A stretch of DNA of 64,000 nucleotides from a virus (lineage: Duplodnaviria > Caudoviricetes). The notes under the pieces were generated by a model, which saw nothing but the letters and a program-made list of their open reading frames with translations, searched no databases and was not told the DNA's origin. A program made the position numbers and the translations under genes. The stretch lies in IMG/VR virus record IMGVR_UViG_2791355125_000001, positions 3,333-67,332 of that record. One strand, written 5' to 3'. Below, in pieces: positions 16,089 through 44,536 of this stretch; the first letter of the stretch is position 1; every line of letters begins with the position of its first letter.

Positions 16089-18041
16089 TCAGGAGCCGCT
16101 CGACTCGGACAGGCCGCGGAAGTCGAGCGCCTTGACGCCGGCATCGATGCGGACCTTGAACTCGGCGCCGTCGACACTCCAGCCATCACGCTGCTCAAGC
16201 ACGGGTGAGGAGTTGCCGTTGAGATAGGCCACCTCTATCGTATCCTGCGCGTTCGGATTGGCTGCGAGATACCACTTCGCCTTGGAGCTCTGCGAAAGGC
16301 GTGCCTCCGAAACGACCTGAGCCAGGCCGCGCACCGTGTTCGGGTTCTTCTGCGTGCCGGCCGGATCGAATTCCGCCGCCATTAGCGCCGTCGCCTTGCC
16401 CTCCAGTTCGACCGGGACCAGGATGAACGCCGGGCGGATGTTCAGGCCGCCGGTGGCATTCTGGTCGGGGTCCTTCTGCAGTGCCATCGCCGAGCGGGCC
16501 GCGTCGACCGCTGCCATCGTGACGCCGCCAGTGCCCTTGTTGCCGTGGTCATCGTGGAACAGCGGCTTGCCGTCCGACATAACCACGTTGCCGGTGATCT
16601 GCGCGTAGACCAGATTGCCGATGGTGCGGCGCGCAGCGCGGCCCATGCGCGAGGGAATGCGCGTGAAGGACGACAGGTCATCATTGATGATTGCCTGTCG
16701 GGTGATGGAGAACATCTTGCCGTAAGTGGCAAGCTGGATCGTCTCGCCGCGGTCGCCGATGGTCCCATAGGAGTACTCGCCACCTTCCGGAACTTCCGAC
16801 AGCGCCGGGAAGAGGTTCAGGTCGACGCGCTTGGTCGGCTTGAAGTCCGACAGCACGCCCTTCGCGGTCCAGGCTTCGAAGGTCTCCTCGGCCTCGAGGT
16901 AGCCCTTGAGCATGGATTTGTTGGCGACGTTCGCGAGCACCTCGACGAAGTCGCTGGTCGAGTGCTGCATGGTGAATGCAGCGCCCACCATGGCCATGGG
17001 ATCACGGAACGTCGTCATATTGACGTTGTTGCGGACGAGGGATTCGCGAGCGACTTCGCGCAGCGACATTGCGGAGAACTCGTTGACCTCGCCGCCCTCC
17101 AGACCAGCCTTGGCCATCAGGGACTTCGACACGCCTTCCTTGAAGCGGTCGCGGGCATCGGCGGTGACAGTGGCGACCGGGCGGATTTCCGGCTGCTTGT
17201 CGCGAGCGGCAAGCGCGTTGATGATGCCGTCCTTGCCCTTCTCCAGGTCGCCAGCGGCGGCCTTCATCACCGCCGAGGTCTCGGCCATGGTGAGATTGGC
17301 GACTTCGCAGCGGGCGAAGATTTCGTCGGCATGATTGGCGACGGGCGCGGCCGGGGTTACCGTGGCCGTCACGGGTGCAGTCTGTGCCATGATAGGCTCC
17401 TTTCGAGAAGTGGCATTGGCCACGGGGGAAGCAGGGCGAGCGCGGTGCGCCTCCTGCGGTATCGACGACGGAAGGCCGGCGTAGATGCTGTAGTCGAAGG
17501 CAGCGACCGCTTCGGCCGCCGTATCGTCGGTTGCGGTCGCGAAGCCCTGGGCGACCGCTTCATCGGCAGTCAGCCAGGTCTCGGTCTTCATGAGTTCGCG
17601 CATGGCGTCGATGTTCGCGCCGGTACGCTTGGCGTAGATGCCGGCGATGACGTCTGCCGTCTTGTCGAGAATGCCGGCGTTGGAGCGGTGGGCTTCGGCG
17701 TTGCCGATGGTGATGCCGGATGGATCGTGGATCATCAGCAGGGCGCCGGTGCGCATGACGATGCTGTCGCCGGCCATGGCGATGACGGAAGCCGAGGAGG
17801 CCGCGATGGCATCCACCGAAACGGTCACTTTGCCGGGGTGGGCAACGAGCGCGTTGTAGATGGCCACGCCGTGACTGACATAGCCACCGCCGGAATTGAC
17901 CCGGACACTCACGTCGCCAGGGCCCACCTCGGCCAGGGCATCGATGACATCGCGGTCCGTGAACCCCGTGCCATCACCCCATATGTCGCCGACGTTGCCG
18001 TAAAGCACGACCTCGCCGCCGACGAGAAGTCGGTGCGTCAT
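16089..18041 (-). CDS. ClpP-like prohead protease / major capsid protein fusion
   Basis: VRVNSGGG, AASSASVIAMAG, MIHDPS; capsid part HSTSDF, YGKMFSITRQAIINDD. Confidence 0.92.
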   Translation of the reverse strand: MTHRLLVGGEVVLYGNVGDIWGDGTGFTDRDVIDALAEVGPGDVSVRVNSGGGYVSHGVAIYNALVAHPGKVTVSVDAIAASSASVIAMAGDSIVMRTGALLMIHDPSGITIGNAEAHRSNAGILDKTADVIAGIYAKRTGANIDAMRELMKTETWLTADEAVAQGFATATDDTAAEAVAAFDYSIYAGLPSSIPQEAHRARPASPVANATSRKEPIMAQTAPVTATVTPAAPVANHADEIFARCEVANLTMAETSAVMKAAAGDLEKGKDGIINALAARDKQPEIRPVATVTADARDRFKEGVSKSLMAKAGLEGGEVNEFSAMSLREVARESLVRNNVNMTTFRDPMAMVGAAFTMQHSTSDFVEVLANVANKSMLKGYLEAEETFEAWTAKGVLSDFKPTKRVDLNLFPALSEVPEGGEYSYGTIGDRGETIQLATYGKMFSITRQAIINDDLSSFTRIPSRMGRAARRTIGNLVYAQITGNVVMSDGKPLFHDDHGNKGTGGVTMAAVDAARSAMALQKDPDQNATGGLNIRPAFILVPVELEGKATALMAAEFDPAGTQKNPNTVRGLAQVVSEARLSQSSKAKWYLAANPNAQDTIEVAYLNGNSSPVLEQRDGWSVDGAEFKVRIDAGVKALDFRGLSESSGS

Positions 18042-18065: not shown

Positions 18066-19514
18066 CTAGTTCTGCGGCTGTTGCTGCGGTGCTGGGTTGC
18101 CCACGCTCGTGACCTTGCGCGGATCACTGTCGAAGATCAGGCCGAGATCGTCCGCCCGGGTGTTGTCGGCGGCGATTTCCTCATCAAGATCGGCGGGGTC
18201 GAAGCCGAGCTTGCGCTGCTCATTCGAACGCGAAGAAAGCCCGGTGCGGATCGCGTCGCGGGATGCCGCCACCTCTTCCCGCGGATTGATCATCTCGCGG
18301 CGCGGTGGGGTCCATAGGACCTTGGCCGAGATCGACCGACCGAGTTTGATGGCAGCCGCATCGAGAAACCACTTGCCGACCGGCTGCATCATCTGCGGCA
18401 GCAGCATGAAGTTGCGCCACGCGTCTATGTTGCGCTGCTCGACCAGCCAGCCCATGCGCCCGGAAGAGAAATTCACGTTGGACAGGTCGCCGGAAAACGA
18501 TTCATACGAAATGCCGAGCCCGGCCGCGATCTCGCGATCCTGACCCTTGATGTAGTCGGCGTAGTCATCGACCTTCGGAGGGGTGCCGAAGGTGACTTCC
18601 TCGTCGTCGTTCAGCCGCTCGATCATGCCAGGCTCGAACGACTCGACGGGATAGTCCTTGCCTTCATCCTTTACGCCAGAGCCTTCTGACGACTTGATGA
18701 AGGCCACGAAGCAGGCCGCTATTTTCTGCCGCATGAGATGGGCGTCGGCGAAGTCCGCTCTGTCGCGCATGCGCAGGATGACTGGAGCGAACCACGAGAT
18801 GCCACGGGCTTGGCCTGGCCTCTGGGTGTAAAAGACATGGGCGATGAATTCGGCCGGAACCGGCTTGCTGACCTGCAGCGAGTACGTCGCCATCGAGCCA
18901 GGATGCTCAGGAAACAGGTGATAGGCTTCGATCTTGCCGAAGGGGTTGAATTCGATGCCCTGCACCGCGTAGTTGCCGTTGGCCTGTGGTCCGTTGACAG
19001 AAGAGTCGAGATAGTCCGGCTCCATCACCTGAAGCTGGAACGGCAGTGGCAGCCCATCAGATGCATAGCGCGGTCTGTATCGGATCAGGGCCTCGCCGGA
19101 TTCCGGCACGGTCCCCATGACAACGTTCTGCTGGCCGTAGAGATCATGTCGGCCATAGGCATCGCAGGCTGTGGTGTCGAAATGCTGCTTCAGCAGATCC
19201 TCGAGCTGCCCCTTTAGCTGTTCGTCATCACACTCGATTGTCGGGATGATCCCTGTGCCGACGACGTTGTGGGCGATCAAGTGCTTGGCCCGCGCGGCCA
19301 GTGGCACGTTGCGAACCATGTCACGGGCGACATCGCGCAGCCGGCTCGCGGCGCCTAGGACTTCCGTGTTCGCATCGGTCGAGACGGAGCGCCAGCCCTG
19401 CGTGCGACGGCTGCGGGAAGCACCATCGTAGACCATGCGGGCTTGGCGGATCGCCTCGCCCTTGAGCGCGCGGCCGGGGGTGATGAAGTCGCCGAGACGT
19501 GAGAGAAAGCCCAT
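18066..19514 (-). CDS. Portal protein, lambda family
   Basis: RPGQARGISW, LSNVNFSSGRMG motifs. Confidence 0.93.
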   Translation of the reverse strand: MGFLSRLGDFITPGRALKGEAIRQARMVYDGASRSRRTQGWRSVSTDANTEVLGAASRLRDVARDMVRNVPLAARAKHLIAHNVVGTGIIPTIECDDEQLKGQLEDLLKQHFDTTACDAYGRHDLYGQQNVVMGTVPESGEALIRYRPRYASDGLPLPFQLQVMEPDYLDSSVNGPQANGNYAVQGIEFNPFGKIEAYHLFPEHPGSMATYSLQVSKPVPAEFIAHVFYTQRPGQARGISWFAPVILRMRDRADFADAHLMRQKIAACFVAFIKSSEGSGVKDEGKDYPVESFEPGMIERLNDDEEVTFGTPPKVDDYADYIKGQDREIAAGLGISYESFSGDLSNVNFSSGRMGWLVEQRNIDAWRNFMLLPQMMQPVGKWFLDAAAIKLGRSISAKVLWTPPRREMINPREEVAASRDAIRTGLSSRSNEQRKLGFDPADLDEEIAADNTRADDLGLIFDSDPRKVTSVGNPAPQQQPQN

Positions 19515-19516
19515 GG

Positions 19517-19717
19517 TCAGCACCCGTTACTGAAGCCGGCGACAGTGCGGCGTGGCCGCGTCGGTGAGGCAGAGACGTCGGCCTCCATGTCAGCAAGCTG
19601 CTTCTGCATTTCAGCGAGCGAGCGAAAGGTGGTGGTCGTTTCGCCGTGTCGAACGGTGAGCACGCCAGACGCCATTGCCGCCTTCAGCGCGTCGATCTGC
19701 GCCTGTGAATATGCCAT
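19517..19717 (-). CDS. gpW-like head-tail joining protein
   Basis: ALKAAMASGVLTV..FRSLAEM; between terL and portal. Confidence 0.85.
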   Translation of the reverse strand: MAYSQAQIDALKAAMASGVLTVRHGETTTTFRSLAEMQKQLADMEADVSASPTRPRRTVAGFSNGC

Positions 19718-19721
19718 CGAT

Positions 19722-21848
19722 CTACCTCAACCATCCGCCGCTGCGTCGTTGGCGACGCATTTGCCGTGGAGCGGCCTTTTCCACTTTCGGGGGCGCGTCC
19801 GGCCCGGGTGCGCTGACGATCTTTACCGCGTAGGGGTTCTTTTCGATCGGCCCCGCCCACGGTGGCGGGTTCCCCCAGTCGATCTTCTCGGCCTTGAGCA
19901 CGATCGCCAGCGCTCTGGCGTAGACGGCCAGGTCGAGCGATTCATTTCGGATGCCCTGCTTTTTCGGGTCCCAGCCTGTGTCTGTCCTGAGCTCCGCGCA
20001 GAATTCTGCGAAGGCGGCATCGGATAGGCCGTCCGGCAGGTGATAGGCGTTCGGCCCAGGTTCTTTGCGCGTCAGCGCCAGGGCCACCTCATCCTTGAGT
20101 GGGTCGGTTCCGACCATGACGAGGCGAATGTCGGTTTTCCGCCGCTTGCTCGTCCCGAGCACCTTTTCCGGCGCCTGGTAAACTGCCCGCTCCCGGTTGA
20201 GCCCGCCGCGTCCCTTGGCCAGATAGAGCCTTTGCCCATAGCCGCGCTTTCGCATGGCGCGCAGAAACTTGTAGGCGTTGGCCGTCACACCGGCCGCACC
20301 GCCCGAGTCGATGATCACCGCCCGCGGCAGCAGCGAGAAACCCGTCCCTGCCACCGGATAGGCGAGATCAAAGAGCGGTTCGAGAACCGCCCAATCCTCC
20401 ACATAGCGGCCCGGATCGAGCGCGCGCCGCGGCTTTCCATCCGGGCCGGGTTCCGCTCCCGGTGCCGTTGCCGGCGGCTCGATGATGTCGAACCGGTCGA
20501 TCAGCCAACGCTCGAGACCTTCGCCCACTGCCTCGGCAGAAACCACGAAACGTCCGCCCTGCACGTCGACCTGGATCGTCGTGAACCGAGCGGCCTCGGG
20601 AATGACGCGCATCGGGAAGCGCTGCGCCAGCGCCTTCAACGTCTCGACTGCCAGCGCATCGCCGACCAGGCGAACCATCGGCTGATGCGGGCGCCCCTGG
20701 TCCAGGGTGACGGTCGCCTTTAACGCCTTCTCGTCGCCCCGCTCGTCGAAGGCGGCCTTGGCCTGCAGGTAGCGAAGCACGAGTTGTTCCCAACTCTGCA
20801 TCGCCGCCACCGGTCCCTCGCACCAATAGGACGCGACATCCGTATCGCGCACCGCTGGGTCGTCGATCTCGACGAGGCTTTGGCCGTCGTTTGTCTCATG
20901 CAACCAGACGCCGGCCGCGTTCATGTCGCGCTTGCGGTCAGGCCCGATCACGCACCCATGCGGGCAAGCCATGAAGGTAGTCTTGGCGCTCTCGCCGGCG
21001 CTACCCTTCGTCTCCCAGTGGAGGGATGCGAAAAGCGGCTGGAACGCTGTCCGGCAGTGCGGGCAGTCCCAATAGACCTTCCCGCGCGTGCCCTGGTTGA
21101 ACTCCGACAGGATGCCGGAACACGGTGGCGCCTCGTGCAGCGTCGCCGGTTCCCAGTCGTCACGCTCGATCACTCGACCAGGCGAGCCCTCGCACACCGT
21201 CATCCCGAGAGAGCCGGCGTGCTGAGTGCGCTTCCTGGCTAGGAAGAAGCCCGACCCTTCGCCGTCGATATCCTCCGGGAAGCGGTCGTAGTCGGTCAGG
21301 AGGACGGTGAAATATTCGTTCTGCGAGAAGTAGCCGATCACCGGCCAGCGGATCTGCAGGTTCATTCCGCCTTGAAACTGCTTCTCATGAATGTTGTCGG
21401 CCCCGCGCCCTCTCATTTGGCGTTCCGCCAACTCTGAATTGGCCCGCAGCATCGGCGCCAGCTTGCGCTGCGAGAACTGCTTCGCTGAATCCTGCGTCTG
21501 GCAGACCACCAGAGTGTCGCGAGGCTTGCATGCGATCGCGTGCCCGACGGGGTTTAGGATCAGGCTTTCCGACTTCGCCGATCGTGATGGCCCGCAGAAC
21601 ACCACCGCACCATACTTGCGCGAGGTGAACATGCGCGCCGGCTCGTTCATGTAAGGCGCGAAGTCGGGAGACCACTTGCCCCGAAAGGTCGGCAGCGCAA
21701 TCCGCCGCTCTTCCTTTGCCCACTCCGGCACGCTCACCCGCTTTTGCGGGCTCAGTGATGGCCGCGCCTCGCGAATGACATCTCCGACCTGCGCAAAGTC
21801 CGGAGGCGCGACCGGCGGCAGGAACCGCGCCCAGACCTCATTACGCAT
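19722..21848 (-). CDS. terL: Terminase large subunit (gpA family)
   Basis: GPSRSAKSE Walker A variant, TDYDR, CPHC zinc motifs, VDVQ, IDSGG, RNESLD. Confidence 0.93.
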   Translation of the reverse strand: MRNEVWARFLPPVAPPDFAQVGDVIREARPSLSPQKRVSVPEWAKEERRIALPTFRGKWSPDFAPYMNEPARMFTSRKYGAVVFCGPSRSAKSESLILNPVGHAIACKPRDTLVVCQTQDSAKQFSQRKLAPMLRANSELAERQMRGRGADNIHEKQFQGGMNLQIRWPVIGYFSQNEYFTVLLTDYDRFPEDIDGEGSGFFLARKRTQHAGSLGMTVCEGSPGRVIERDDWEPATLHEAPPCSGILSEFNQGTRGKVYWDCPHCRTAFQPLFASLHWETKGSAGESAKTTFMACPHGCVIGPDRKRDMNAAGVWLHETNDGQSLVEIDDPAVRDTDVASYWCEGPVAAMQSWEQLVLRYLQAKAAFDERGDEKALKATVTLDQGRPHQPMVRLVGDALAVETLKALAQRFPMRVIPEAARFTTIQVDVQGGRFVVSAEAVGEGLERWLIDRFDIIEPPATAPGAEPGPDGKPRRALDPGRYVEDWAVLEPLFDLAYPVAGTGFSLLPRAVIIDSGGAAGVTANAYKFLRAMRKRGYGQRLYLAKGRGGLNRERAVYQAPEKVLGTSKRRKTDIRLVMVGTDPLKDEVALALTRKEPGPNAYHLPDGLSDAAFAEFCAELRTDTGWDPKKQGIRNESLDLAVYARALAIVLKAEKIDWGNPPPWAGPIEKNPYAVKIVSAPGPDAPPKVEKAAPRQMRRQRRSGGWLR

Positions 21849-23227: not shown

Positions 23228-23304
23228 GCGCTCGTAGCTCAATTGGATAGAGCATCGGACTTCGAATCCGCAGGTTGCAGGTTCAACCCCTGCCGAGCGC
23301 ACCA
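23228..23304 (+). tRNA. tRNA-Arg(UCG)
   Basis: Acceptor stem GCGCTCG/CGAGCGC, D-arm AGCTCAATTGGATAGAGC, anticodon loop CT-TCG-AA, T-arm GCAGG TTCAACC CCTGC, encoded CCA. Confidence 0.9.
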
Positions 23305-25323: not shown

Positions 25324-26178
25324 TCAGTAGGCGTAGGCAAGCTGCTTTTCGATCAGGCTAGGTTCCGCCGGAGCCAGCACGCTATCCCTGCCAAGCTCGG
25401 AGAGTTCGTCGGCCCGTTCATTGCCAATAATCCCGGCATGTCCCTTGCACCACTCGAGCTTGATCGGGACGGCAGTCAGCGCCTCGTCGAGTGCCTGCCA
25501 TAACTCCAGGTTGGCAATCGCGGCGTTCTCGGGTTTCGCCTTCGGACCTCCACGTTTCCAGCCTTTCGCCTTCCAGCCGTGCCGCCAATCGTTGCAACCA
25601 TTGACAGTATACTGGCTATCCGAAAACAGCCGCACCGGCTCGACGATGCCGCGCTCGGCAAACCAGCGCAGCGCCATCAGAGCCGCCGTGAGTTCCATGG
25701 TTTGGTTGGTAGCGGAAAGATCGCCGCCGTGGTCGGAATGGATCTCTATGCCGTCGCGATAGACGACGAAGCCCCAACCGCCGACGCCGGGATTGGGGTG
25801 ACAAGCACCGTCGGCGTAGATCACGAGGCCGGACGGGATAGTCCGGTCGAAAGATGCCGGGTTCCGCGCGCTCTTCTGGACGGTGCCGAAAAGATCGTTT
25901 TGCATCCTGCTCCCTTTAGGTTTCCAAGGTTTCTTGGTGGCGGCCGACCTCTCACTGGATTTGTTACCAGTGAACTGCATCTGCGGGCGATCCGCCGATA
26001 CATGTGATCCGATCACACGTGAGCCCGGCGCAACCTTCGTCACAGGCCCGGTGTATCCGGCAAGAAGCCTGTCGGCCTGCCGGCGAAGCTCGTCCTTGGA
26101 AAGGCCGGCTTTGTCTTCGACGCCCTGACGCGCCATCCGCTTGCGATCATCGTTCTTCGCCCAATTGAATCCACTCAT
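25324..26178 (-). CDS. Ribonuclease HI domain protein with ~115-aa N-terminal extension
   Basis: IYADGAC.PNPG.GGWG, TNQTMEL, SDSQY, KGHAG..GNERAD; catalytic residues intact. Confidence 0.92.
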   Translation of the reverse strand: MSGFNWAKNDDRKRMARQGVEDKAGLSKDELRRQADRLLAGYTGPVTKVAPGSRVIGSHVSADRPQMQFTGNKSSERSAATKKPWKPKGSRMQNDLFGTVQKSARNPASFDRTIPSGLVIYADGACHPNPGVGGWGFVVYRDGIEIHSDHGGDLSATNQTMELTAALMALRWFAERGIVEPVRLFSDSQYTVNGCNDWRHGWKAKGWKRGGPKAKPENAAIANLELWQALDEALTAVPIKLEWCKGHAGIIGNERADELSELGRDSVLAPAEPSLIEKQLAYAY

Positions 26179-26972
26179 GCTGCCTTCCTCCTCTTCCGGC
26201 ATCGTTGGAACCAAGTTGAAGCCAAGCCCTTCCAAACCGGGCATCCATGTGTAGCGGCGAACCGCTTCGCCTCGGTCTCGGCTGATCCGTTCATGGCGAG
26301 GATCGTCGCTGTCAGGTCTACGCCCTCAACCGCACCACCGAATTCCATATCGGTCATCAGGTATTCCGCGGCCTTGATGTGCGTGGCCGTAATCGGCGCC
26401 AGATCCGCCTTGGCCAGTATTTCGAGGTACTGCCTGGCGCGCATGGCGCCGCGGCGGCCTATCAATGACTGGATCGCAGCGATGGCGATACAGTCGCCCG
26501 GCCTGAACCCTGCCGATGGGTATTTCGGGATGCGGACGCCGGCGCGCTGGCAAACCTGCCTGATGGTCTCGGCGTCTTCGTCGTCCGCTGCCAGCTTGGC
26601 AAAAAACAACTCGAGCGCGCTGACGTTCTTCCGCGAGGCGTTGATCTCGACGAAGATCGAGGCTTCAGACTGGACGTCTTCGGCCTTCACTATCACGGCC
26701 GGAACGTACGTCACCATGGGATGACGCTTGGCCGCTTCAAGCCGGTGCTGGCCGTCCGTCGCGTGGAATCTGCCATCCTTCTGAGGCACGACGACAAGGG
26801 CGCCGAATGAGCGCCAGGAGAACGCTTTCAGGATTGCGTCGACACGGCCATCGTCGAGCGGTCGCTGATAGAGCGGATCAGCCTCGATAAGAGCCTTGTC
26901 AAGCCAGTCGAGCACCGGCACCTCGCCGGGATCAGGCAGCTTGATTGCGTTGATGGTGACAAGATTTGTCAT
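26175..26972 (-). CDS. ParB-like N-terminal domain protein (DUF6551-like)
   Basis: DPLYQR, F.WRSFG, DGQHR motifs. Confidence 0.8.
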   Translation of the reverse strand: MTNLVTINAIKLPDPGEVPVLDWLDKALIEADPLYQRPLDDGRVDAILKAFSWRSFGALVVVPQKDGRFHATDGQHRLEAAKRHPMVTYVPAVIVKAEDVQSEASIFVEINASRKNVSALELFFAKLAADDEDAETIRQVCQRAGVRIPKYPSAGFRPGDCIAIAAIQSLIGRRGAMRARQYLEILAKADLAPITATHIKAAEYLMTDMEFGGAVEGVDLTATILAMNGSAETEAKRFAATHGCPVWKGLASTWFQRCRKRRKAA

Positions 26973-27394
26973 CCCTGCCTCCCGAAGATGTGCGGCAAGG
27001 CCTCATGGACTTTGGCCAGGGCATCCGCTCTGGTTTTCGCGGCAAAGTCGGCGATGAGACGCGCCTTCTCCTCTCTGATCGCCCGATCTGCGGCGAAGCC
27101 GATCGCGAAGAGCTTGTCGCGGAGCGCCAGCATCTCGCCGGAGGTACTGGCCGCGGCAACCACGAGGTCTCGATAGCGCCGGCCGCCCGGTACCAGATAG
27201 GTCTTTGGCATGACGCGCTCGACCTGCAGCACTTCGAACTGGTCTTCGGCCTTGCGCAGGCAGTCCCAGCCAGACCCGCCATAGACGAGGTGCCCAAGGG
27301 CGCCTGCCATGTCGCGGTCCATGTGGCCTTGGTAAAAATGTTCAATGTAGGTCAGCACGTACTGACCGGCCTCGATGGGGATGAGCGCGGTCAT
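26969..27394 (-). CDS. Hypothetical phage protein; close paralog of 36534-36953
   Basis: Long identical peptide stretches shared with the prophage R copy. Confidence 0.8.
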   Translation of the reverse strand: MTALIPIEAGQYVLTYIEHFYQGHMDRDMAGALGHLVYGGSGWDCLRKAEDQFEVLQVERVMPKTYLVPGGRRYRDLVVAAASTSGEMLALRDKLFAIGFAADRAIREEKARLIADFAAKTRADALAKVHEALPHIFGRQG

Positions 27395-27436
27395 GCGGCA
27401 CCCCGCGCACGCGGATGTAGAACTCTACGATGATGC

Positions 27437-27507
27437 GGGGCTTCGCCCCTGCACCCCACGAGGGACTTAGTCCCTCGACCCATGCCGACCGCTACGCGGC
27501 CGGTCAT
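27437..27507. other. Cluster of three triloop hairpins, candidate replication origin or priming signal
   Basis: GGGGC-TTC-GCCCC, CGAGGGAC-TTA-GTCCCTCG, CCGC-TAC-GCGG. Confidence 0.5.
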
Positions 27508-27521
27508 CATGATTTCAGTGT

Positions 27522-27833
27522 TCATGCTGCACCATCCGGCGTTGAGCCATATTGCTTGTGAAGATTGAGGGAGCGACTGACGGCGGAACCGTAGCGCTGG
27601 ATTTCGTGATCTATCTGATGGGAAGAGAGGCCGAGGTCGCGAAGCGACTTACGCAGCTGCTTGATATGCGCGGCCCACCATTGCTGCCCAAGGTAGCGAT
27701 TGCGCGAGTCGAGCTCTTTTGCCGCCTCGCGGACCTCGCCAATCCGGAATTCCAACGGAAAAACCGCGACGGTTGGGGCTCTTATGATTTCAATGGTGAT
27801 AGGACCACGGTTGTCCGCATGAATGCCGGTCAT
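27522..27833 (-). CDS. Hypothetical protein (DUF6074-like)
   Basis: VAVFPL..RIG.VR..A..L...WW pattern; ATGA coupling. Confidence 0.65.
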   Translation of the reverse strand: MTGIHADNRGPITIEIIRAPTVAVFPLEFRIGEVREAAKELDSRNRYLGQQWWAAHIKQLRKSLRDLGLSSHQIDHEIQRYGSAVSRSLNLHKQYGSTPDGAA

Positions 27834-28357
27834 TCGCAGTCTCCATCCGGACCACTGTTGTCCGCATCAAAGTCGCTTGGCTCAATCCCGATCCTGGGGT
27901 CGAACACAGCTGGCACAGCCAACCGAATGGTTCGCGTTCTCTTGAAGTTGCCGCCGTTCGGCCGGCGCCAACCAAGTCCGACCGAAATGACCCCCATGTT
28001 CCGATATGCGGCGATCTGACGACGGACCTTCCTGGTTGAGCACCTTCCGGCCGCCTCAGCAAACTGCTCGTCTGTGGCGTAAATCTCGCCCTTCTTCCAA
28101 AACAGGAATTGTTCGAAGGTGCTGATCGTCTGGAAGCTGTAACCAGCATCGTCGATGATCTGGTTTGCGATGAACTGCCATGCCCGGAACGCCTTTCGTT
28201 GCTCCGGGCGCGTCGTAGGCCACAGCCAGTTGCGAGACGGCTGGACGTCAAACGTCCGGTGTTTTCCGGATCTGGCGGCGTCAGGCACAACCTCGCTACG
28301 GCGCTGCGGATCGAAGGTATCGGGGATCGCGCCGAGGTGTGGTGCAGCCATGCTCAA
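27830..28357 (-). CDS. Winged-helix protein, candidate replication initiator
   Basis: YATDEQFAEAAG.CSTRKVRRQIAAYRNMGVI HTH; early position. Confidence 0.55.
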   Translation of the reverse strand: MSMAAPHLGAIPDTFDPQRRSEVVPDAARSGKHRTFDVQPSRNWLWPTTRPEQRKAFRAWQFIANQIIDDAGYSFQTISTFEQFLFWKKGEIYATDEQFAEAAGRCSTRKVRRQIAAYRNMGVISVGLGWRRPNGGNFKRTRTIRLAVPAVFDPRIGIEPSDFDADNSGPDGDCE

Positions 28358-28539
28358 GCCGCGTCCTCCAAGAAGAAGCTGACCAGCTTCCTACGGGAAG
28401 CCACCCAGCGTTCACCGACCTGCTTGGCCGGCAACTTACCGGTGCGCAGCAGATAATGGGTTTGCGTCGGCGTCCTGGCGATCACCTTGGCAATCGCCTC
28501 TGCACCCCAGACGAGATCGAGAGATTCTTCATTATCCAT
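28354..28539 (-). CDS. Xis/AlpA-like DNA-binding protein
   Basis: LVWGAEAIAK...GKLPAKQVG.RWVASR motif; divergent from the repressor-integrase unit. Confidence 0.8.
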   Translation of the reverse strand: MDNEESLDLVWGAEAIAKVIARTPTQTHYLLRTGKLPAKQVGERWVASRRKLVSFFLEDAA

Positions 28540-28562: not shown

Positions 28563-28635
28563 TATCCAGTGGATAATGGCCCATTCTTATCCAATGGATA
28601 TCATTGACGTCAAGGGGCATTTTATCCAATGGATA
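28563..28635. promoter_or_regulatory. Three palindromic operators TATCCA(G/A)TGGATA
   Basis: Copies at 28563-28575, 28588-28600, 28623-28635; TTGACGTCAA palindrome at 28604-28613. Confidence 0.85.
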
Positions 28636-28657
28636 TACGTTCACAGGGATTACGTCA

Positions 28658-29203
28658 GTGACAGCCACAAGAAGCAAACCGGATCAGTACCTTTTGAGGT
28701 TGCCTCCCGGCCTCCGCGAGCGGATCAAGGCCTATGCGGACTATATGGGCCGGTCCATGAACGAGGAGATCGTCCGGATTCTGGAGCGCCAGTTTCCAGA
28801 GCCTTGGGTTGCGGGTTCCAGGATCGATGAGTTGTTGGAAATGCTCCGAGTGCTTCAACGGAGCGGCGCAAGCGAGGACGGAATTGCCAAGCTTGTGTCA
28901 GAGCTAAAGGCAACAATCGAGGGTATTCACAGCGGTCGGGTCACTGGCCTCGATGAGAAGGCTCGAAACAGAATCGAACAGCAATATCAGGAATGGCAGG
29001 AACGCGAATACGAATACCAGCAGGACCTCGCGTCCGAGGAATACGATCCGATAGAAGACGAATCGCTCGGTCGGACAGGCCGGCCAGAGAAGTTCGTGTA
29101 CCCAGACGGCTCTATCGGCCCCCAACGCGAGTATCGACCCGCGTCATGGGGTGAGGAGCCGCAGGGCGATCCATTCGAGGATCCTTTTGAGGACAAGAAG
29201 TAG
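28658..29203 (+). CDS. Arc-family (ribbon-helix-helix) regulator with acidic C-terminal extension
   Basis: DQYLLRLPPGLRERIKAYA...GRSMNEEIVRILE. Confidence 0.85.
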   Translation: MTATRSKPDQYLLRLPPGLRERIKAYADYMGRSMNEEIVRILERQFPEPWVAGSRIDELLEMLRVLQRSGASEDGIAKLVSELKATIEGIHSGRVTGLDEKARNRIEQQYQEWQEREYEYQQDLASEEYDPIEDESLGRTGRPEKFVYPDGSIGPQREYRPASWGEEPQGDPFEDPFEDKK

Positions 29204-30441
29204 TGGCCATCCGCAAGCGCCGCTGGACAACCAGCAAGGGAGAGAAGCGAGAGGGCTGGCAACTCGACTATGCTGACCAGCACGGCGTTCGCCAGCGCAA
29301 GAGCTTCGACACGAAGGCTGACGCTGTTGCCTTTGAGACAACCGTGCGTGTCGAGGTCCGCGACGGCACCCACGTCGCGCCAAACAAGGACATCACCCTG
29401 AAGGACGCCGCTGACATCTGGATCAAGGCGGTGAAGGCTGGGCGCGGCGAGAGGCCGCCAGCCGAGCGCAGCACAGTTCGCCAGTACGAATATCACCGGG
29501 ACACATATCTCGTGCCGATGCTTGGCACGGTGAAGCTGGGGCAGCTTAATCAGGCCCGCGTCATGGCCTTCCGGGATGAGCTTCTTGAAAAGCTTTCGCG
29601 GTCGCTGGCTAAGAAGGTGCTCGCCAGCCTCAAGGGCATCCTGAGTGAAATGCGCGATCGTGGAAAAGTGGTTGCCAATCATGCCGCCAAGGTAAAAATC
29701 GGGGCCGCCACGCGCGACGACGATGGCGCCGCGGAGGTGCCTGCCATTGCCGACATCAAGGCAATCTTGGTGAAGCTGGATGAGCTCTCCGAACCAGACG
29801 GAACCCCTATCGGGTTGGTGACTTCGAAAGCCTGGAGTCGCCGCCGGGTGCTTCTCTGCACTGCAATCCACACCGGTATGCGCGCCAGCGAGTTGCGCGG
29901 CCTGACATGGGATGCGATAGATCTCAGTAAGGGCGTCATCCACGTCCGCCAGCGGGCTGACGAGTGGGGCGTCATCGGTGCGCCGAAGAGCAAGGCCGGC
30001 CGACGCTCTATCCCGATCCCCCCTGCCCTGGTCGCCATGCTGCGGCAGTGGAAAGTGGCGTGCCCTCCAAGTGAGCTCGTCTTCCCGAGCGAGGAAGGCC
30101 GGCCGCAGTCGCTATCGAATATTTACAACCGGGCCTGGAAGCCGATCCAGATCGCGGCCGGCGTTTGCGATCCTGAGAAGGACGAAAAGGGCAAGGTGAA
30201 ACTCGATAAGGATGGGAAGCCGATTATGGAGCCGCGGCACCGCTTCCATGATCTCCGGCACTTCCATGCCTCTATGTTGATTGCAGACGGAGCCAACCCA
30301 AAGGAGGTTCAGGTCGAGATGGGCCATAGCTCAATCCAGATGACCTTCGATCTCTATGGGAGCTTATTCAAGGACGAGGACACGGAGCGCAGGCAGAAGG
30401 CCAGAGCCGGAAGACTTGCGGAAAAACTGTCTGGCACATAA
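29203..30441 (+). CDS. int: Tyrosine integrase
   Basis: TGMRASE (R), PKS (K), HDLRH, MGHSS, DLYG catalytic motifs. Confidence 0.95.
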   Translation: MAIRKRRWTTSKGEKREGWQLDYADQHGVRQRKSFDTKADAVAFETTVRVEVRDGTHVAPNKDITLKDAADIWIKAVKAGRGERPPAERSTVRQYEYHRDTYLVPMLGTVKLGQLNQARVMAFRDELLEKLSRSLAKKVLASLKGILSEMRDRGKVVANHAAKVKIGAATRDDDGAAEVPAIADIKAILVKLDELSEPDGTPIGLVTSKAWSRRRVLLCTAIHTGMRASELRGLTWDAIDLSKGVIHVRQRADEWGVIGAPKSKAGRRSIPIPPALVAMLRQWKVACPPSELVFPSEEGRPQSLSNIYNRAWKPIQIAAGVCDPEKDEKGKVKLDKDGKPIMEPRHRFHDLRHFHASMLIADGANPKEVQVEMGHSSIQMTFDLYGSLFKDEDTERRQKARAGRLAEKLSGT

Positions 30442-30453
30442 ACGGCACACAAA
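30433..30453 (+). repeat. Direct repeats GGCACAYAAA, probable integrase arm-type sites
   Basis: GGCACATAAA 30433-30442 and GGCACACAAA 30444-30453, next to the att core. Confidence 0.55.
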
Positions 30454-30490
30454 GGAAGAAAGCCCTTTCTTTTCAGAAAGGGCCATGGGC

Positions 30491-30535
30491 ATCATAATCC
30501 TTGTGTCGGGGGTTCAAATCCCTCCTCCGCTACCA
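30491..30535 (+). other. att site: 3' fragment of tRNA-Met(CAT)
   Basis: ATCATAATCCTTGTGTCGGGGGTTCAAATCCCTCCTCCGCTACCA holds anticodon loop, T-arm and CCA; 5' half absent. Confidence 0.9.
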
Positions 30536-32102
30536 TCGTCCCCCCCCGAACTGCAAAGCGGTGGGACAAGCCTTCATCAACAAGGCTCGATAGGTAGCCA
30601 TCCACCTTCAACACCGGCCTTTCTCCGGCACTTGATGGAAACACGGTGACAGAAGTCACCAAGTCACGAACGCAGCGTCGAACATCGAGCGACAGCATCC
30701 CGCCCGATTTGACGGCCGCGTCTAGCTCTTCCAAGCTACGAAGGTACCTGGCAACAAGCGCTGGCTTGAGAGTTACCACCTTTGGCGGCTCGGGGATCAC
30801 AGCGAGTTCGTCCGTCAGCCTCTTCTTTTCTTCGCGCAGGGGGGGGAGCTGTTCGGCTGCTTCTTCCTCGCTGATGACGCCTTTGATCGCAAGTTGCAGG
30901 ATTCGTTGATATTCCCTCTCGGCCGCGGCCAAGCGCTGGCGGGCCTTCTCTCGCGACACGCCCTGCCCTGCGTAGAGCTTCTTATGCTCGTCGTTGTAGC
31001 ACTCGACGTAGAATTCCAGCAGCTTCGGATCATCGAGGCGCGAGCGCAGCCCATCCACGACGGTCGCCTCTATGTCGTCGAGCACATATGGCCGCGTGTT
31101 GTGGCAGGACCTCGCTTCCTTCGCCTTCGTGCACATGATGCGCGTAACCCGGCCCATCTTGTCCTTGATCGACATGCCAGCCCCGCAGGCGCCGCACTTC
31201 AGCAGGCCAGACAAGATCCGCGCATTCTTCTTCATCGGCTTGTCGCTGGTTGCGCGCACTTTCCGACCGTTCACCTGGGCGAATATGTCAGCCAGAACGA
31301 TTCGAAGATGGGGCGCATCTTCTTCCTGCCACTCCGATTGCGGGTTTACCCTCGAAATGCGCTTGCCGGTGTCGGGGTCTTTGACCATGCGAACACGGTT
31401 CCAGACAATTCGCCCGTCATAGATCGGATTCTGCAGCATGCCGTTGGCACGCTTGCGGTTCCCATTGATGGTTGATGCCTGCCAAAAGGCGCCGCGTGGC
31501 GGTGCGACGTTTTCGGCGTTTAGATCGCCAGCAATTTCCCGCGGCGATTTCCCGGCGGCATAGTCCGCGAAAATCCTCCGCACGACTTCCGCCTCTTCTT
31601 CCACAATGACCAATTCACCGGGTTTCCCCGGCACGGGCGCGTAACCGTAGGCCTTGCCACCAGCGTTCCGCCCGTCACGCACGACGCCAGCCATGCCGCG
31701 TCGGACTTTGTGCGCCAGGTCCTGTAGGTATAGAGCGCCGACCAATCCCCGAATGCCAACCTGCACGATATCGGCCTTGCCATCATGCACGGCACGGATC
31801 TCGACGCCGATGTGCGTCAAGCGCTTGTAGATCCCGGCTAGGTCCTCCTGATCGCGTGACAGCCGGTCGAGTGCCTCGACGACAAGGACATCGAACTTGC
31901 CGTCACGCGCAGCGTCCATCATTGCAAGAACGCCGTCACGTCCCATTATCGAGGCGCCGGAGCGAGCACGGTCGTCAAACTCAGCGACGATGGCCAGGCC
32001 CTGCTTTGCGGCAAAGTCGCTGCAAAGCGATACCTGGTCCTCGATCGACCTGTCAGTTTGCAGGTCGCTCGAGTATCTGGCGTAGATGGCCGCGCGCTTC
32101 AT
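30492..32102 (-). CDS. Large serine recombinase (integrase)
   Basis: AIYARYSSDLQ, DRLSR, recombinase domain, LSGLLKCGACG zinc ribbon, coiled coil; GGAGG SD. Confidence 0.95.
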   Translation of the reverse strand: MKRAAIYARYSSDLQTDRSIEDQVSLCSDFAAKQGLAIVAEFDDRARSGASIMGRDGVLAMMDAARDGKFDVLVVEALDRLSRDQEDLAGIYKRLTHIGVEIRAVHDGKADIVQVGIRGLVGALYLQDLAHKVRRGMAGVVRDGRNAGGKAYGYAPVPGKPGELVIVEEEAEVVRRIFADYAAGKSPREIAGDLNAENVAPPRGAFWQASTINGNRKRANGMLQNPIYDGRIVWNRVRMVKDPDTGKRISRVNPQSEWQEEDAPHLRIVLADIFAQVNGRKVRATSDKPMKKNARILSGLLKCGACGAGMSIKDKMGRVTRIMCTKAKEARSCHNTRPYVLDDIEATVVDGLRSRLDDPKLLEFYVECYNDEHKKLYAGQGVSREKARQRLAAAEREYQRILQLAIKGVISEEEAAEQLPPLREEKKRLTDELAVIPEPPKVVTLKPALVARYLRSLEELDAAVKSGGMLSLDVRRCVRDLVTSVTVFPSSAGERPVLKVDGYLSSLVDEGLSHRFAVRGGTMVAEEGFEPPTQGL

Positions 32103-32229
32103 CGTCATTGCCTCCCATCTGCCTGGCATAATCATCGCGAGCAGCTTGCCGCGCAAGTACCTCTACGAGCCGTGCTAGTGCAGGCTCGACGCCGACAGGC
32201 GGCGGAATGGTGGATCGAGCAGTTTTCAC
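32053..32229 (-). CDS. Small protein overlapping the integrase start, candidate recombination directionality factor
   Basis: GTGA coupling; LARLVEVLARQAARDD helix. Confidence 0.5.
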   Translation of the reverse strand: MKTARSTIPPPVGVEPALARLVEVLARQAARDDYARQMGGNDDEARGHLRQILERPAN

Positions 32230-34585: not shown

Positions 34586-34638
34586 AACCTAACAGGGGAT
34601 ATTTCCCTCGTCAACTCATTCGGGGGAAATTTCCTCCG
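34586..34638 (-). promoter_or_regulatory. Leftward early promoter with two operators
   Basis: Minus strand TTGACG-N17-TAGGTT; AGGGGATATTTCCCT 34594-34608 and GGGGGAAATTTCCTCC 34622-34637. Confidence 0.7.
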
Positions 34639-35392
34639 CATCGAGCAGGGGAAGGTTCCTTGTAGCTCGAACAGCTAAAGCCATTACCCAAGCCACGCCC
34701 ATAGGCTTTGCCCTGTACATATTCAGGCCATCATCGCGATCAAGCTTCTTGCCGAGAACAATCGGATCTTCGTTCGCCACGCTCGACTTCGTTACAAGCC
34801 TGACTTCGTCACCCTCGACCTCTACCAACCTTAAGCTAGTCTCTGCGGCCCGGATTTCGTCTATGCCGAACCTAACCACCACAAGGCGGCCAGGGACGAG
34901 ACGGATATCCTTTTTGTGCATCTCCCCATGTGCTGCAGTGATCAAGTCGCCTTCTACCAGGTTGAGAAGGTCCATGGATCGATCTTTCAGCTTGAAAAGG
35001 CTGTATTCCCAGCCAATTAGCCGTAAATCATTGTAAATAAGGTCCCCTTCGGTTGTTCTTCTGGGGTCATCCTTTGTCGCCCACAGCGCCTTTCTGTATA
35101 CACCGGCTTCAAGGTAGTCAGAAAGCTTGGCGTACTTGGGCATATACTCCCAATCAAACGTCGGGCCGCCATCGGGTTGATCCGACTGGCCAGTGAGATA
35201 GGCCATTGTGCAGTCTAGGGGAGTTGTCAGCTTGAGAAGTGTCTCCATCTGAGGACTCTTGGCTCGGCCTGACAAAATGTCTCTTACCGCTGTTTTGCCT
35301 AGACCGGCCTCTGTAGAAGCAGCGGTCGCAGATTTGCCCGTGGCGTTCAAACGCTCACGAATCCGATCAGGTAGGGACGGTTCCACAGGCAA
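34616..35392 (-). CDS. CI-like repressor (HTH plus S24 peptidase-like domain)
   Basis: ASTEAGLGKTAVRDILSGR HTH; AG site (LEAGVY); LKDRSM..L.EGD; start codon uncertain. Confidence 0.85.
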   Translation of the reverse strand: MPVEPSLPDRIRERLNATGKSATAASTEAGLGKTAVRDILSGRAKSPQMETLLKLTTPLDCTMAYLTGQSDQPDGGPTFDWEYMPKYAKLSDYLEAGVYRKALWATKDDPRRTTEGDLIYNDLRLIGWEYSLFKLKDRSMDLLNLVEGDLITAAHGEMHKKDIRLVPGRLVVVRFGIDEIRAAETSLRLVEVEGDEVRLVTKSSVANEDPIVLGKKLDRDDGLNMYRAKPMGVAWVMALAVRATRNLPLLDAEEISPE

Positions 35393-41080: not shown

Positions 41081-41560
41081 ATGGCCGGCAGGAAACGGAC
41101 GCCGGACCACCTGAAGTTGGTGGCCGGCACAGCGCAGCCTTGCAGGATGAACCCAGACGCGCCGAAGGCCTTGGCAGACTTGCCGGTCGCTCCTGACTGG
41201 CTGTCGACGCGCGCCACCGAGATATTCGACGGCCTGGTCGCCATCGCGAGCCAGATGGGCGTGGCGTCCGCTTCCGACACTGCGATGCTGGCGATGGCCG
41301 CGTCGCGCCTTGAGGAAGTCGAGATCTGCACGGCCCTGATCGAAGACGGTGGCCGGACCTTCGTCAGCAAGGTCGCCTACGACGAGGAAGGCCGCGTCAA
41401 GAGCCAGCAGATCAAGGGCCATCCCGTTGTCGCCCAGCGCAGCGAGGCAATGCGTCACGCTCAATCGCTACTGGTAGAGTTCGGCCTGTCGCCGGCTGCA
41501 CGGTCAAAGGTGTCGGCAAATGTCCCGGACGAGCAAAACCCGTTTGCCGCGCTCGGGTGA
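41081..41560 (+). CDS. terS: Terminase small subunit (P27 family)
   Basis: GRKRTP.HLK, PDWLS, HP.V, EFGLSPAARSKV. Confidence 0.92.
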   Translation: MAGRKRTPDHLKLVAGTAQPCRMNPDAPKALADLPVAPDWLSTRATEIFDGLVAIASQMGVASASDTAMLAMAASRLEEVEICTALIEDGGRTFVSKVAYDEEGRVKSQQIKGHPVVAQRSEAMRHAQSLLVEFGLSPAARSKVSANVPDEQNPFAALG

Positions 41561-43226
41561 GTTCCCGCACGTCGAATCTGGCAATCGGTACGCGAAGGAC
41601 GTTGTTCAGGGGAAGATACCAGCCTGCAAGTGGGTGCTGTTAGCCTGCAAGCGTCACCTCGACGACCTCGCGGCGAGCAAGGATAAGGCCTACCCGTACC
41701 GCTTCGACGCGAAGGTGGCGGAGAAGTGGTGCAAGTTCATCGAGCTACTGCCTCACACAAAGGGCGAGTGGGCCAGGAAGAAGGAGCGGCTACGGCTCGA
41801 GCCGTGGCAATGCTTCAAGACCATCGCCATCTTCGGCTGGCTGCGTAAGCAGGACGGGCTAAGGCGCTTCCGCAAGGCGCTGCTCCTCGAGCCGAGGAAG
41901 AACGCCAAATCGACCTGGGCGGCCTCCGTCGGCCTCGGCATGATGACGATAGACGGCGAGCACGGCGCCGAGGTCTACTCCGGCGCAACAACCGAGAAGC
42001 AGGCGTTGGAGGTGTTCGGGCCGGCGCGGCTGATGGCGGTTAAGTCGCCGGGCCTGCTGTCGCATTTCGGCGTGACAGTGAACGCCAAGAACATTCACCG
42101 AATGGGCGACGGCTCCAAGTTCGAGCCGATGATCGGCGATCCGGGTGATGGCGCCTCGCCGTCATGCGCCATCGTCGACGAATACCATGAGCATGCGACT
42201 GACCGGATGGTCGACACGATGGAAACGGGCATGGGTGCCCGCGAGCATCCGTTACTGCTCATCATCACGACGGCCGGCGACAATCTGGCCGGGCCATGCT
42301 TCGCCGCGGTGCAGGAGGCCGAGAAGGTGCTGGACGGCCTCGTCCAGAATGACGAGCTATTCGCGCTGATCTACACGGTCGACAAAGACGACGACTGGTC
42401 GAGCGATCTGGCGCTGCGCAAGGCAAACCCCAACTACGACGTGAGCGTCAAGGGCGAGTTCCTTCGCGCACGGCAGCGCGACGCCAAGCAGAACCCGCGC
42501 AAGCTCGGCGTGTTCAAGACCAAGCACCTCAATATGTGGGTGCAGGCACGGAACGCCTACTTCGACGTGCAAAGGTGGCGCGAAAGTGCCGATCCACGCC
42601 TGAAACTGGAGGATTTCCGGGGTAAACCGTGCCGGATCGGCCTGGACCTTGCCTCAACCATCGACATCGCCGCGATGGAGCTCACCTTCGAGCATGAAGG
42701 CGGCTATGCGCGCTTTGGGCGGTACTACCTGCCCGAGGCGACCATCGAACTTCCGGAGAACGGCCACTATCGCGGCTGGCGAGATGCGCCGGAAGGCTGG
42801 ATCACCCAGACCGATGGCGACATGATCGACTACGTCACGATCCGGGACGACATTCTCGGCCTGCGTGACGACGGATACCTGATCGAGGAAGTCGCCTTCG
42901 ATCCGCATCAGGCTTACATGATGATGGCCGAACTACGCGACGAGGGCTTGGCCACCATCGAGGTTAGGCCGCTGGTCCTCAACTTCTCGCCGGCAATGAA
43001 GCAGATGGACGGCCTGATCCGGTCACGGAAGATCGTCCACAACGGCGATCCTGTCTTTCACTGGATGCTGGCGAACGTGGTCGCGAAGACCGACGCGAAG
43101 GACAACGTCTATCCCCGCAAGGATCGGCCGGAGAACAAGATCGACGGCCCGATCGCCCACATGATGGCGCTGGCGCGGTGGATGGCTACCGAAGAACCGG
43201 CGCGGCCGGCAGTGGAGGTTCTATGA
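41520..43226 (+). CDS. terL: Terminase large subunit
   Basis: LEPWQ, PRKNAKS, IVDEYHE, ITTAG, GLDLAS, KIDG. Confidence 0.95.
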   Translation: MSRTSKTRLPRSGEFPHVESGNRYAKDVVQGKIPACKWVLLACKRHLDDLAASKDKAYPYRFDAKVAEKWCKFIELLPHTKGEWARKKERLRLEPWQCFKTIAIFGWLRKQDGLRRFRKALLLEPRKNAKSTWAASVGLGMMTIDGEHGAEVYSGATTEKQALEVFGPARLMAVKSPGLLSHFGVTVNAKNIHRMGDGSKFEPMIGDPGDGASPSCAIVDEYHEHATDRMVDTMETGMGAREHPLLLIITTAGDNLAGPCFAAVQEAEKVLDGLVQNDELFALIYTVDKDDDWSSDLALRKANPNYDVSVKGEFLRARQRDAKQNPRKLGVFKTKHLNMWVQARNAYFDVQRWRESADPRLKLEDFRGKPCRIGLDLASTIDIAAMELTFEHEGGYARFGRYYLPEATIELPENGHYRGWRDAPEGWITQTDGDMIDYVTIRDDILGLRDDGYLIEEVAFDPHQAYMMMAELRDEGLATIEVRPLVLNFSPAMKQMDGLIRSRKIVHNGDPVFHWMLANVVAKTDAKDNVYPRKDRPENKIDGPIAHMMALARWMATEEPARPAVEVL

Positions 43227-44536
43227 ACAGTTGGCGCGAGCGCCTCGCCGGATGGATCGCTGGGCGCGAGGCCACCGAACCCATGCTCGACAAGGCTGCC
43301 GAACCGGTGTTTGCACAGGCTGGTGACAAGCAGGTTCCGCTGTCCACCATCACCCGCGATTCATCGTCCTGGGCGGATTTGGTCGAGGGCATCGGCAAGC
43401 TTCCGGCGCCAACGGAACGTACCGCTCTCTCCGTGTCGGCGATCCATGCCTGTGTCAACCTGATCGCAGGCGCGGTCTCGGCCCTGCCGGTGAACATCTA
43501 CCGCGTTGACGCTGAGAACGGCGAGCGCGATCGTATCCACAACGACGCGCTGCATTGGGTGTTCAACGAGCAGATGACGCCGCGTTGGGCTGCGGCGAGC
43601 GGCTGGGAATTCATGGTTCAGTCGTTGCTTCTGCACGGCGACGGATTCGCGATCATCAACAGAAAGCCGGGCGGCGGTATCGATGGCTTGACGCCTATCC
43701 ATCCACAGCGCGTGACCGTCGCTGTCTGGCCGGACGGCTCTAGGCTGGTCTATGCCGTTTCGCCGGAGATCCCGGGCCAAACCAAGGGCGACTTCCAGGT
43801 CGTCGACCAGGACGACATGCTGCATGTGCCCGGGTTCGGCTTCAACGGGATCCGCGGATTGTCGCCGCTGCGCTATGCGCTGCGTTTGACCGGTGCTTCG
43901 GCCATCGCGGCGCAGGAGTTCTCGGCCAACTTCTTCGCAAACAGCGCTCGACCGGACTATGCGATTTCGACCGACAAGAACCTGAACGAGCAGCAGAAGC
44001 AGGATCTGCGCGACGAGATCGACCGTCTCCATCAGGGAATGGCGAACTCTCACCGTCCGATGCTTCTCCAAGGTGGCCTGCAGTTCAAGGCGATCACCAT
44101 GTCCATGAAGGACCTGGAGATCATCGCCCAGCGCCAGTTCCAGACCGAGGAGATCGCCCGCATCTACGGCGTGCCACCGTTCATGATCGGGCACAACGAG
44201 AAGACGACAAGCTGGGGATCTGGCGTCGAGGCGATGGCCATCGGCTTCGTGCGCTTCACGCTGCGCCAGCACCTGGTCAAGTTCGAGACCGAGATAAACC
44301 GGAAGCTCTTCCGCACCGCCAGCCGCGTTGCCGAGTTCGACACGTCGGATCTCGAACGCGCCGACATGAAGTCGCTGTTTGAATCGCTGCGCATCGCCGT
44401 CGGTCGCGCTGGCGAACCGCAGATCATGTCGCAGAACGAGGCTCGCCAGGTGCTGCGCCTCAAGCGTCACCAGAACGGCAACAATCTTGGCGTCAACCCG
44501 GGCAAGTCGCCCGCGCAACCGCAGGAACCAGCATAA
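43223..44536 (+). CDS. Portal protein, HK97 family
   Basis: LLLHGDG, GLSPL, EIARIYGVPP, NEAR. Confidence 0.95.
   Translation: MNSWRERLAGWIAGREATEPMLDKAAEPVFAQAGDKQVPLSTITRDSSSWADLVEGIGKLPAPTERTALSVSAIHACVNLIAGAVSALPVNIYRVDAENGERDRIHNDALHWVFNEQMTPRWAAASGWEFMVQSLLLHGDGFAIINRKPGGGIDGLTPIHPQRVTVAVWPDGSRLVYAVSPEIPGQTKGDFQVVDQDDMLHVPGFGFNGIRGLSPLRYALRLTGASAIAAQEFSANFFANSARPDYAISTDKNLNEQQKQDLRDEIDRLHQGMANSHRPMLLQGGLQFKAITMSMKDLEIIAQRQFQTEEIARIYGVPPFMIGHNEKTTSWGSGVEAMAIGFVRFTLRQHLVKFETEINRKLFRTASRVAEFDTSDLERADMKSLFESLRIAVGRAGEPQIMSQNEARQVLRLKRHQNGNNLGVNPGKSPAQPQEPA

Follow-up and report, generated by a model that had tools for sequence, protein, structure and literature searches.

Classical large serine recombinases (LSRs), those of Bxb1, phiC31, TP901-1 and A118, combine a resolvase domain, a recombinase domain and a zinc ribbon, act on short attachment (att) sites whose imperfect inverted arms surround a central dinucleotide, and target protein-coding genes or intergenic sites; the Bxb1 integrase reportedly works on "small (<50 base pair) substrates". 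The same domains and site layout recur in an LSR encoded in the stretch of viral DNA analyzed here (the window: 64,000 nt, G000:C22:3333-67332, its right edge coinciding with the contig end), in which two prophages, L on the left with a tyrosine integrase and R on the right with the LSR, meet at a 3' fragment of a tRNA-Met gene. In contrast to the classical enzymes, the clade of R's LSR has as its target a tRNA 3' end, that of tRNA-Met or tRNA-fMet, which it restores with 12-16 nt of identity, and it carries attP inside its own coding end. We read the locus as a probable tandem array of prophages at a hot spot, tRNA-Met. We consider it likely that this array runs from an intact tRNA-Met (contig C29) through L, a 45-nt tRNA fragment, R and a 14-nt core to host DNA (contig C27), that L and R excise independently, and that their order of arrival cannot be deduced from it.

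Myxophage Mx8 has its attP inside int, the 3' end of which is altered when the phage integrates. As with R's LSR, the open reading frame (ORF) crosses the crossover point, and the prophage and phage C-termini differ, but Mx8 Int is a tyrosine recombinase, whereas R's integrase is an LSR. The tripartite integrative and conjugative elements (ICEs) of Mesorhizobium reportedly undergo ordered recombination by three integrases and have in common with the question raised here that site arrangement can force the order of recombination; their sites are interleaved, whereas in the window each element's two sites bracket itself alone. Rhizobium phage RR1-A (JF974314) encodes an LSR that is 47.6% identical to R's over residues 17-552 and holds, contiguously and inside the 3' end of the recombinase coding sequence, a G run, a 14-nt tRNA-Met-like core and a C run, the runs forming inverted arms, in the layout and with the dyad center also seen for R. 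RR1-A, a free phage, is distinct from R, and 2 of the 14 core positions are different.

Our literature search found no paper describing the RR1-A att site and no serine integrase targeting tRNA-Met, although supplementary tables (e.g., those of PMC12884075 and PMC11476347) may hold att data. Arrays of elements at tRNA genes are familiar from rhizobia. PMC11476347 reports tyrosine integrases for all but one of 88 tRNA-integrated elements, and in such tandem arrays, as in the window, one tRNA serves several elements, with the intact gene at one end and fragments between. The window differs in having a serine and a tyrosine integrase at two sublocations of one tRNA.

Junction fragment and attachment sites

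The features at the junction, in window coordinates, are as follows.

29203-30441, plus strand: tyrosine integrase of L, 412 aa, PF00589 at residues 212-386 (E 2.3e-23)
30462-30483, plus strand: terminator-like hairpin 3' of the tyrosine integrase, fold -13.9 kcal/mol, z -1.9
30491-30538, plus strand: 48-nt block, the core of attR(L) and also the B half and core of attL(R)
30522-30535, plus strand: 14-nt core common to attL(R) and the candidate attR, matching C27:124-137
30536-30565, plus strand: P' arm of R, with a C8 run at 30540-30547
30492-32156, minus strand: LSR of R, 554 aa, PF00239 at 22-163, PF07508 at 186-298, PF13408 at 314-371

The 48-nt block (30491-30538, plus strand) matches G000:C29:6897-6850 at 48 of 48 positions (E 1.5e-20) and comprises tRNA-Met(CAT) positions 33-77 (45 nt) and a TCG after the CCA; the sole matching intact gene is the tRNA-Met(CAT) at G000:C29:6853-6929. 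The initial annotation had described two integrases of unrelated families converging on a 45-nt tRNA-Met 3' fragment that is preceded by DNA other than tRNA, and this description is confirmed: the domains are PF00589 on one side and PF00239, PF07508 and PF13408 on the other, the tRNA part measures 45 nt (with 3 further matching nt), and the DNA 5' of it is the integrase terminator hairpin. It had also placed the LSR gene beside the fragment, which is right as to convergence and wrong as to mere flanking, since the LSR ORF runs antisense through the entire fragment. At the fragment itself, ARAGORN and Rfam called no tRNA, and the only tRNA that they found in the window is a tRNA-Arg at 23228-23304. 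A blastn-short search of the whole assembly for another long piece of tRNA-Met returned nothing beyond the copies on C22 and C29, the remaining exact match to the tRNA 3' end being 14 nt at the start of C27. The second fragment that had been expected to the right is thus just a 14-nt core on a separate contig, with no second 45-nt copy. The intact tRNA-Met expected to the left is absent from the window and from the 3332 contig bases left of it, but it exists on C29 (C29:6853-6929), where its flank is non-conserved and prophage-like.

That L is a tyrosine-integrase prophage with the fragment as its far end, and that both integrases use tRNA-Met, is supported. The block of identity between L's site and the tRNA extends from the anticodon loop to 3 nt past the CCA. 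A homologue of L's integrase in G016 (47% identical) adjoins a 48-nt tRNA-Met 3' fragment, and another at locus L083 (31-46% identical) adjoins a 45-nt tRNA-Met fragment followed by an LSR 56% identical to R's; the tRNA-Met fragments beside homologues of L's integrase begin at tRNA positions 30-33.

R's LSR has the expected domain order, with an N-terminal resolvase catalytic domain, the recombinase domain and then the zinc ribbon, and its catalytic serine may lie in ...AIYARYSSDLQ..., judging from the resolvase motif. Alignments to homologues begin at residue 17-20, which puts the probable start codon at 32108 or 32102, the latter being the end coordinate given in the initial annotation. The ORF ends in ...MVAEEGFEPPTQGL: its final 14 codons and stop are encoded antisense by the tRNA fragment, and the stop, TGA, is supplied by the anticodon loop.

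Beyond the window, R can be followed through exact end overlaps of 102-127 nt along the path C22(+) -> C88 -> C70 -> C47 -> C61 -> C100/C101 -> C69 -> {C27, C35}, which adds 7,237 bases to it. C27:124-137 is an exact copy of the last 14 nt of the tRNA, with phage DNA before it and a thiamine pyrophosphate-enzyme gene after it, and on C69/C27 the P arm has a G7 run as the mirror image of the C8 run in R's P' arm. We are fairly confident that C27:124-137 represents attR(R). To place the crossover, seven attL/attR pairs were assembled (R, G008 and five large records from a contig scan), their attPs were joined in silico, and a dyad scan was run in which 28 arm positions were scored. The blocks common to the attL and attR of these pairs are 14, 13, 12, 12, 14, 13 and 16 nt long and all end at the CCA; attP and attB share just 12-16 nt. 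In six of the seven pairs and in the native RR1-A attP, the best dyad center, with inverted arms around it, is a dinucleotide located 11-12 nt away from the CCA end; of the 28 arm positions, 14-20 are complementary. The crossover of R would accordingly fall within the last 12-16 nt of the tRNA, with 30524-30525 (tRNA positions 66-67) as the predicted dinucleotide.

These sites suggest a mechanism in which R's LSR exchanges strands at a dinucleotide situated some 11-12 nt inside the tRNA 3' end and attP lies inside the 3' end of R's own integrase gene, so that integration would rebuild the tRNA end and swap the integrase C-terminus. The proposal that R rebuilds the tRNA is supported, and its attP carries the tRNA 3' end. 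Further, because the LSR ORF crosses the core, its prophage and phage forms differ in C-terminus: the prophage form has 9 tRNA-encoded residues after ...VAEE (554 aa), while the excised form is predicted to have 23 residues read from the P arm (568 aa).

The serine-integrase site would be positioned 3' of the tyrosine-integrase site on the tRNA, and the B side of R's crossover retains 33 bp of unchanged tRNA sequence (30491-30523), a length beyond the 28 bp over which arm symmetry was scored. Because of this placement and the retained B half-site, attL(R) and attR(L) are both intact in sequence despite overlapping physically, and the pair of sites belonging to L (intact tRNA and 48-nt block) is likewise intact. 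Thirty-three base pairs of B-side sequence should suffice for R's integrase, the attB half-sites of studied serine integrases (Bxb1, phiC31) being about 17-20 bp. Each element would, with its own complete site pair, excise singly, provided that both phages are active. Neither site is split or destroyed by the other element, as interlocked excision would demand.

As to the order of arrival, the observed sequence arises equally if R came first and L then entered the rebuilt tRNA, or if L came first and R then entered the fragment beside the native flank. Since both orders yield exactly this sequence, the order is not readable from it, and the earlier proposal that R integrated first is not supported. 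The TCG that follows the CCA in both copies is a coincidence, whichever order applies.

Weighing independent excision

Several observations weigh against an array of two independently excising prophages. Since attR(L) and attL(R) overlap physically, binding interference is conceivable, and no directionality factor was recognized for R with Pfam and PHROGs. L's attL and R's attR sit on contigs other than the window's, no exact end overlap was found between C29 and C22, and each end of the repeat in which these contigs terminate is common to at least 10 other contig ends. On the right, C69 exits to both C27 and C35 with the same 127-nt overlap; moreover, the C27 genes from about C27:280 onward are held by G002 and G008 without an adjoining tRNA-Met remnant, which leaves C27 unconfirmed as the native flank. 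One of the seven att pairs, that of G064, has a different best dyad center. Among public reads, one metagenome run contained only 0.09 of the sampled words, which counts as evidence neither way.

L extends left onto C22:1-3332 and presumably onto C29:6852-1. The intact tRNA and the 48-nt direct repeat are both present, but on separate contigs with no join. The 6.85 kb past the intact tRNA on C29 match prophage-like DNA elsewhere in G000 (among others, R's integrase-proximal ORFs at 71% and the post-lysis region on C47 at 83-86%) and include a SRAP gene, while the opposite side of the tRNA carries conserved host genes in 8 of 8 same-genus genomes. In relatives, C29:140-6852 gave only scattered prophage-like matches, and conserved synteny was not found, which fits mobile DNA but falls short of proving that it is L. 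According to BLAST, C22 and C29 terminate in opposite ends of a multi-copy repeat of the IS110 family of insertion sequences (ISs), which makes the order rc(C29)-IS-C22 compatible, though not unique; we regard that join as plausible. The repeat itself (Transposase_20, about 1 kb) occurs in many copies and ends many contigs (e.g., G000:C22:1-140 and G000:C29:1-138, with a further copy at G000:C15:29520-30480).

These contig breaks bear on a first alternative, that the array is a fossil in which L and/or R is defective, through IS110-family interruption of L or missing directionality factors, so that the order of excision is moot. It draws on the breaks at IS110-family repeats in or beside L, on the presence of a degraded third related element (C46), and on the search around both integrases for an excisionase or recombination directionality factor (RDF) with Pfam and PHROGs, in which no Xis or RDF family was matched and the sole match was an Arc-like ORF that precedes the tyrosine integrase and may encode a regulator or a directionality factor for L. 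We nevertheless judge it unlikely, as neither integrase ORF is truncated or lacks a domain, the direct repeat is identical at 48 of 48 positions, and the structural sets of both prophages look complete: L and R are each tailed prophages of about 41 kb with full head, tail and lysis sets (Pfam, PHROGs). The late genes of L lie on the minus strand, and its annotated features in the window (PHROGs, Pfam, ARAGORN) are as follows.

1-30490, minus strand: in-window part of prophage L
2-841, minus strand: N-acetylmuramidase, at the far end of L
9377-12403, minus strand: tape measure
16089-18041, minus strand: protease-capsid fusion (phrog_133)
18066-19523, minus strand: portal (phrog_21)
19722-21848, minus strand: TerL (phrog_15)
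23228-23304: tRNA-Arg(TCG) (ARAGORN)
25324-28539: early genes
28604-29203, plus strand: Arc-like ribbon-helix-helix ORF (PF03869, E 2.4e-9), abutting the tyrosine integrase start

Those of R (Pfam, PHROGs) are listed next.

30539-64000, plus strand: in-window part of prophage R
34616-35392, minus strand: helix-turn-helix regulator
41520-43226, plus strand: TerL (phrog_9)
43178-44536, plus strand: portal (phrog_12)
45327-46547, plus strand: major head protein (phrog_10)
51016-55149, plus strand: tape measure
57661-61164, plus strand: large tail protein
63370 to the window end, plus strand: N-acetylmuramidase

The two prophages also share inverted homologous segments (211-852 with 64000-63358 at 89%, and 26965-27408 with 36957-36520 at 84%), outside which their modules differ; homologous recombination between these segments could invert the intervening DNA, the entire junction included. 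The last R ORF before attR (G000:C69:62-400) encodes a BA14K-like protein, possibly lysogenic-conversion cargo.

A second alternative, that R's right end is C35 and that C27 belongs to a second R-like element, is in our view quite unlikely. In its favor, C69 reaches the two contigs alike, with a 127-nt overlap to each. C35 carries the same P arm, but its core has one mismatch, a C where the tRNA has T, that would break acceptor pair 6-67 and is seen nowhere else in the assembly, whereas C27 matches the tRNA exactly. The second copy of R's P arm lies at G000:C35:1-140, with its mismatched core and a different flank (an Hsp20 gene). C46, a mosaic contig of 5.7 kb that looks like an L/R-like phage with deletions, enters the same contig path toward R's right end; it carries its own tRNA-Arg(TCG), in a region 93% identical to the tRNA-Arg region of L, as part of a degraded related element. 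C35 and C46 together probably represent one more element, the third, in a decayed state; no attL was found for it.

The third alternative is the one that the initial annotation had put forward, namely, that insertion of L removed the host (B) arm of attL(R), so that R is locked in until L excises, or both leave as an L+R composite. Two integrases do converge on one fragment, the junction lacks the tRNA sequence that precedes position 33, and the overlap of attR(L) and attL(R) makes some interference conceivable. Even so, we hold this scenario to be improbable. With the crossover 11-12 nt from the CCA end (dyad center 30524-30525), the B arm would not have been replaced, as 33 bp of unchanged B-side tRNA sequence are still there, exceeding the 28 bp of arm symmetry scored. 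Because attR(R) holds 14 nt of tRNA only and the intact tRNA, attL(L), lacks R's P' arm, there is no site pair for an L+R composite, which would require a site that neither integrase has. Lock-in likewise sits poorly with a complete site pair for each element, and composite exit fits the opposite order of elements, as seen in Rhizobium sp. L1K21. The prediction of ordered excision is, for this locus, most likely wrong, and independent excision of L and R is the reading that we retain.

A serine recombinase clade at tRNA-Met and tRNA-fMet

R's LSR belongs, on sequence comparison, to an alphaproteobacterial clade whose genes run, in antisense, across the end (3') of tRNA-Met or tRNA-fMet. When 61 related genomes were searched with the whole protein, there were 14 matches at E <= 1e-50 besides the window's own, in the following contexts.

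Overlapping an intact elongator tRNA-Met, convergent: 3 (G008, G005, G002:C12)
Overlapping or abutting an intact initiator tRNA-fMet: 3 (G004:C32, G016:C49, G000:C15)
Abutting an initiator tRNA cut by a contig end: 1 (G037)
Abutting a degenerate fragment: 1 (G029)
Without a tRNA: 4 (G000:C21, G002:C1, G015, G057)
Context not assessable: 2 (G033, G002:C13)

A pattern scan of genome contigs yielded 24 near-full-length relatives (Rhizobiaceae, Devosia, Mesorhizobium, Sinorhizobium, Paracoccus, Rhodobacteraceae and others), 21 of which overlap an intact tRNA-Met and 2 of which abut 45-46-nt fragments, the last having none; the tRNA-encoded tail was one of the six scan patterns, so this count is biased and serves as illustration only. 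The arrangement of an LSR abutting a 45-46-nt fragment recurs at loci L073, L083 and L084. One could suppose that the LSR is unrelated to the tRNA site and stands beside it as a by-product of L integrating next to a foreign gene, as the 4 of 14 related recombinases without an adjoining tRNA might hint, but this is extremely unlikely when 8 of the 14 do adjoin one (7 a tRNA-Met or tRNA-fMet gene, 1 a degenerate fragment), the tRNA-encoded ORF tail is seen across the clade, and the RR1-A attP has the corresponding core.

Two related LSRs deserve separate mention. The LSR at G000:C15:115788-117518 is 37% identical to R's and ends, convergently, 5 nt before an initiator tRNA-fMet, and the clade thus occupies tRNA-fMet in G000 too. 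The record PP438422.1 (L104), named Microcystis phage Mae-JY30, has at its very start an LSR with 49.6% identity to that of R; the host assigned to this phage is a cyanobacterium, yet the integrase is of alphaproteobacterial type.

Other arrays at tRNA-Met place the elements differently. In Rhizobium sp. L1K21, the tRNA is followed by a 61.9-kb LSR element, a core, a decayed island of 7.3 kb in which the integrase is truncated, and a 45-nt fragment; separated from its core, the tyrosine-type island could exit only jointly with the LSR prophage. Rhizobium laguerreae FB206 has two LSR elements in tandem. Arrays of this kind lie at L128 (G065:C13:344300-359900) and L127 (G062:C7:679000-686600): one record has a tandem of two LSR elements, and another has an LSR prophage and after it a decayed defense-type island, which contains pieces of a type I restriction-modification system, a STAND NTPase and a patatin and ends in a 45-nt fragment.

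Taken together, these contexts raise the possibility, which we put forward tentatively and at slightly less than even odds, of an apparently undescribed and widespread alphaproteobacterial LSR lineage specialized on two tRNA genes, elongator tRNA-Met and initiator tRNA-fMet, at their 3' ends. Its attP, lying in its own coding end, would switch the C-terminus between phage and prophage, and elements with a tyrosine integrase directed at the anticodon loop would occupy the tRNA alongside it. Array order would then decide the outcome: both elements would be independent in the window, whereas the tyrosine element in Rhizobium sp. L1K21 could leave only as a composite with the serine prophage.

The main interest of the locus lies in this tRNA-targeting LSR clade with attP in its own gene. 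Serine integrases are prized as tools for their short sites and because they need no host factors, and a clade that targets and repairs a universally conserved tRNA end would give ready landing sites across Alphaproteobacteria. The locus further shows two integrase families dividing one tRNA by sublocation, and it suggests a simple rule: the element integrating 3'-most would stay independent, whereas one parted from the intact tRNA by another would not.

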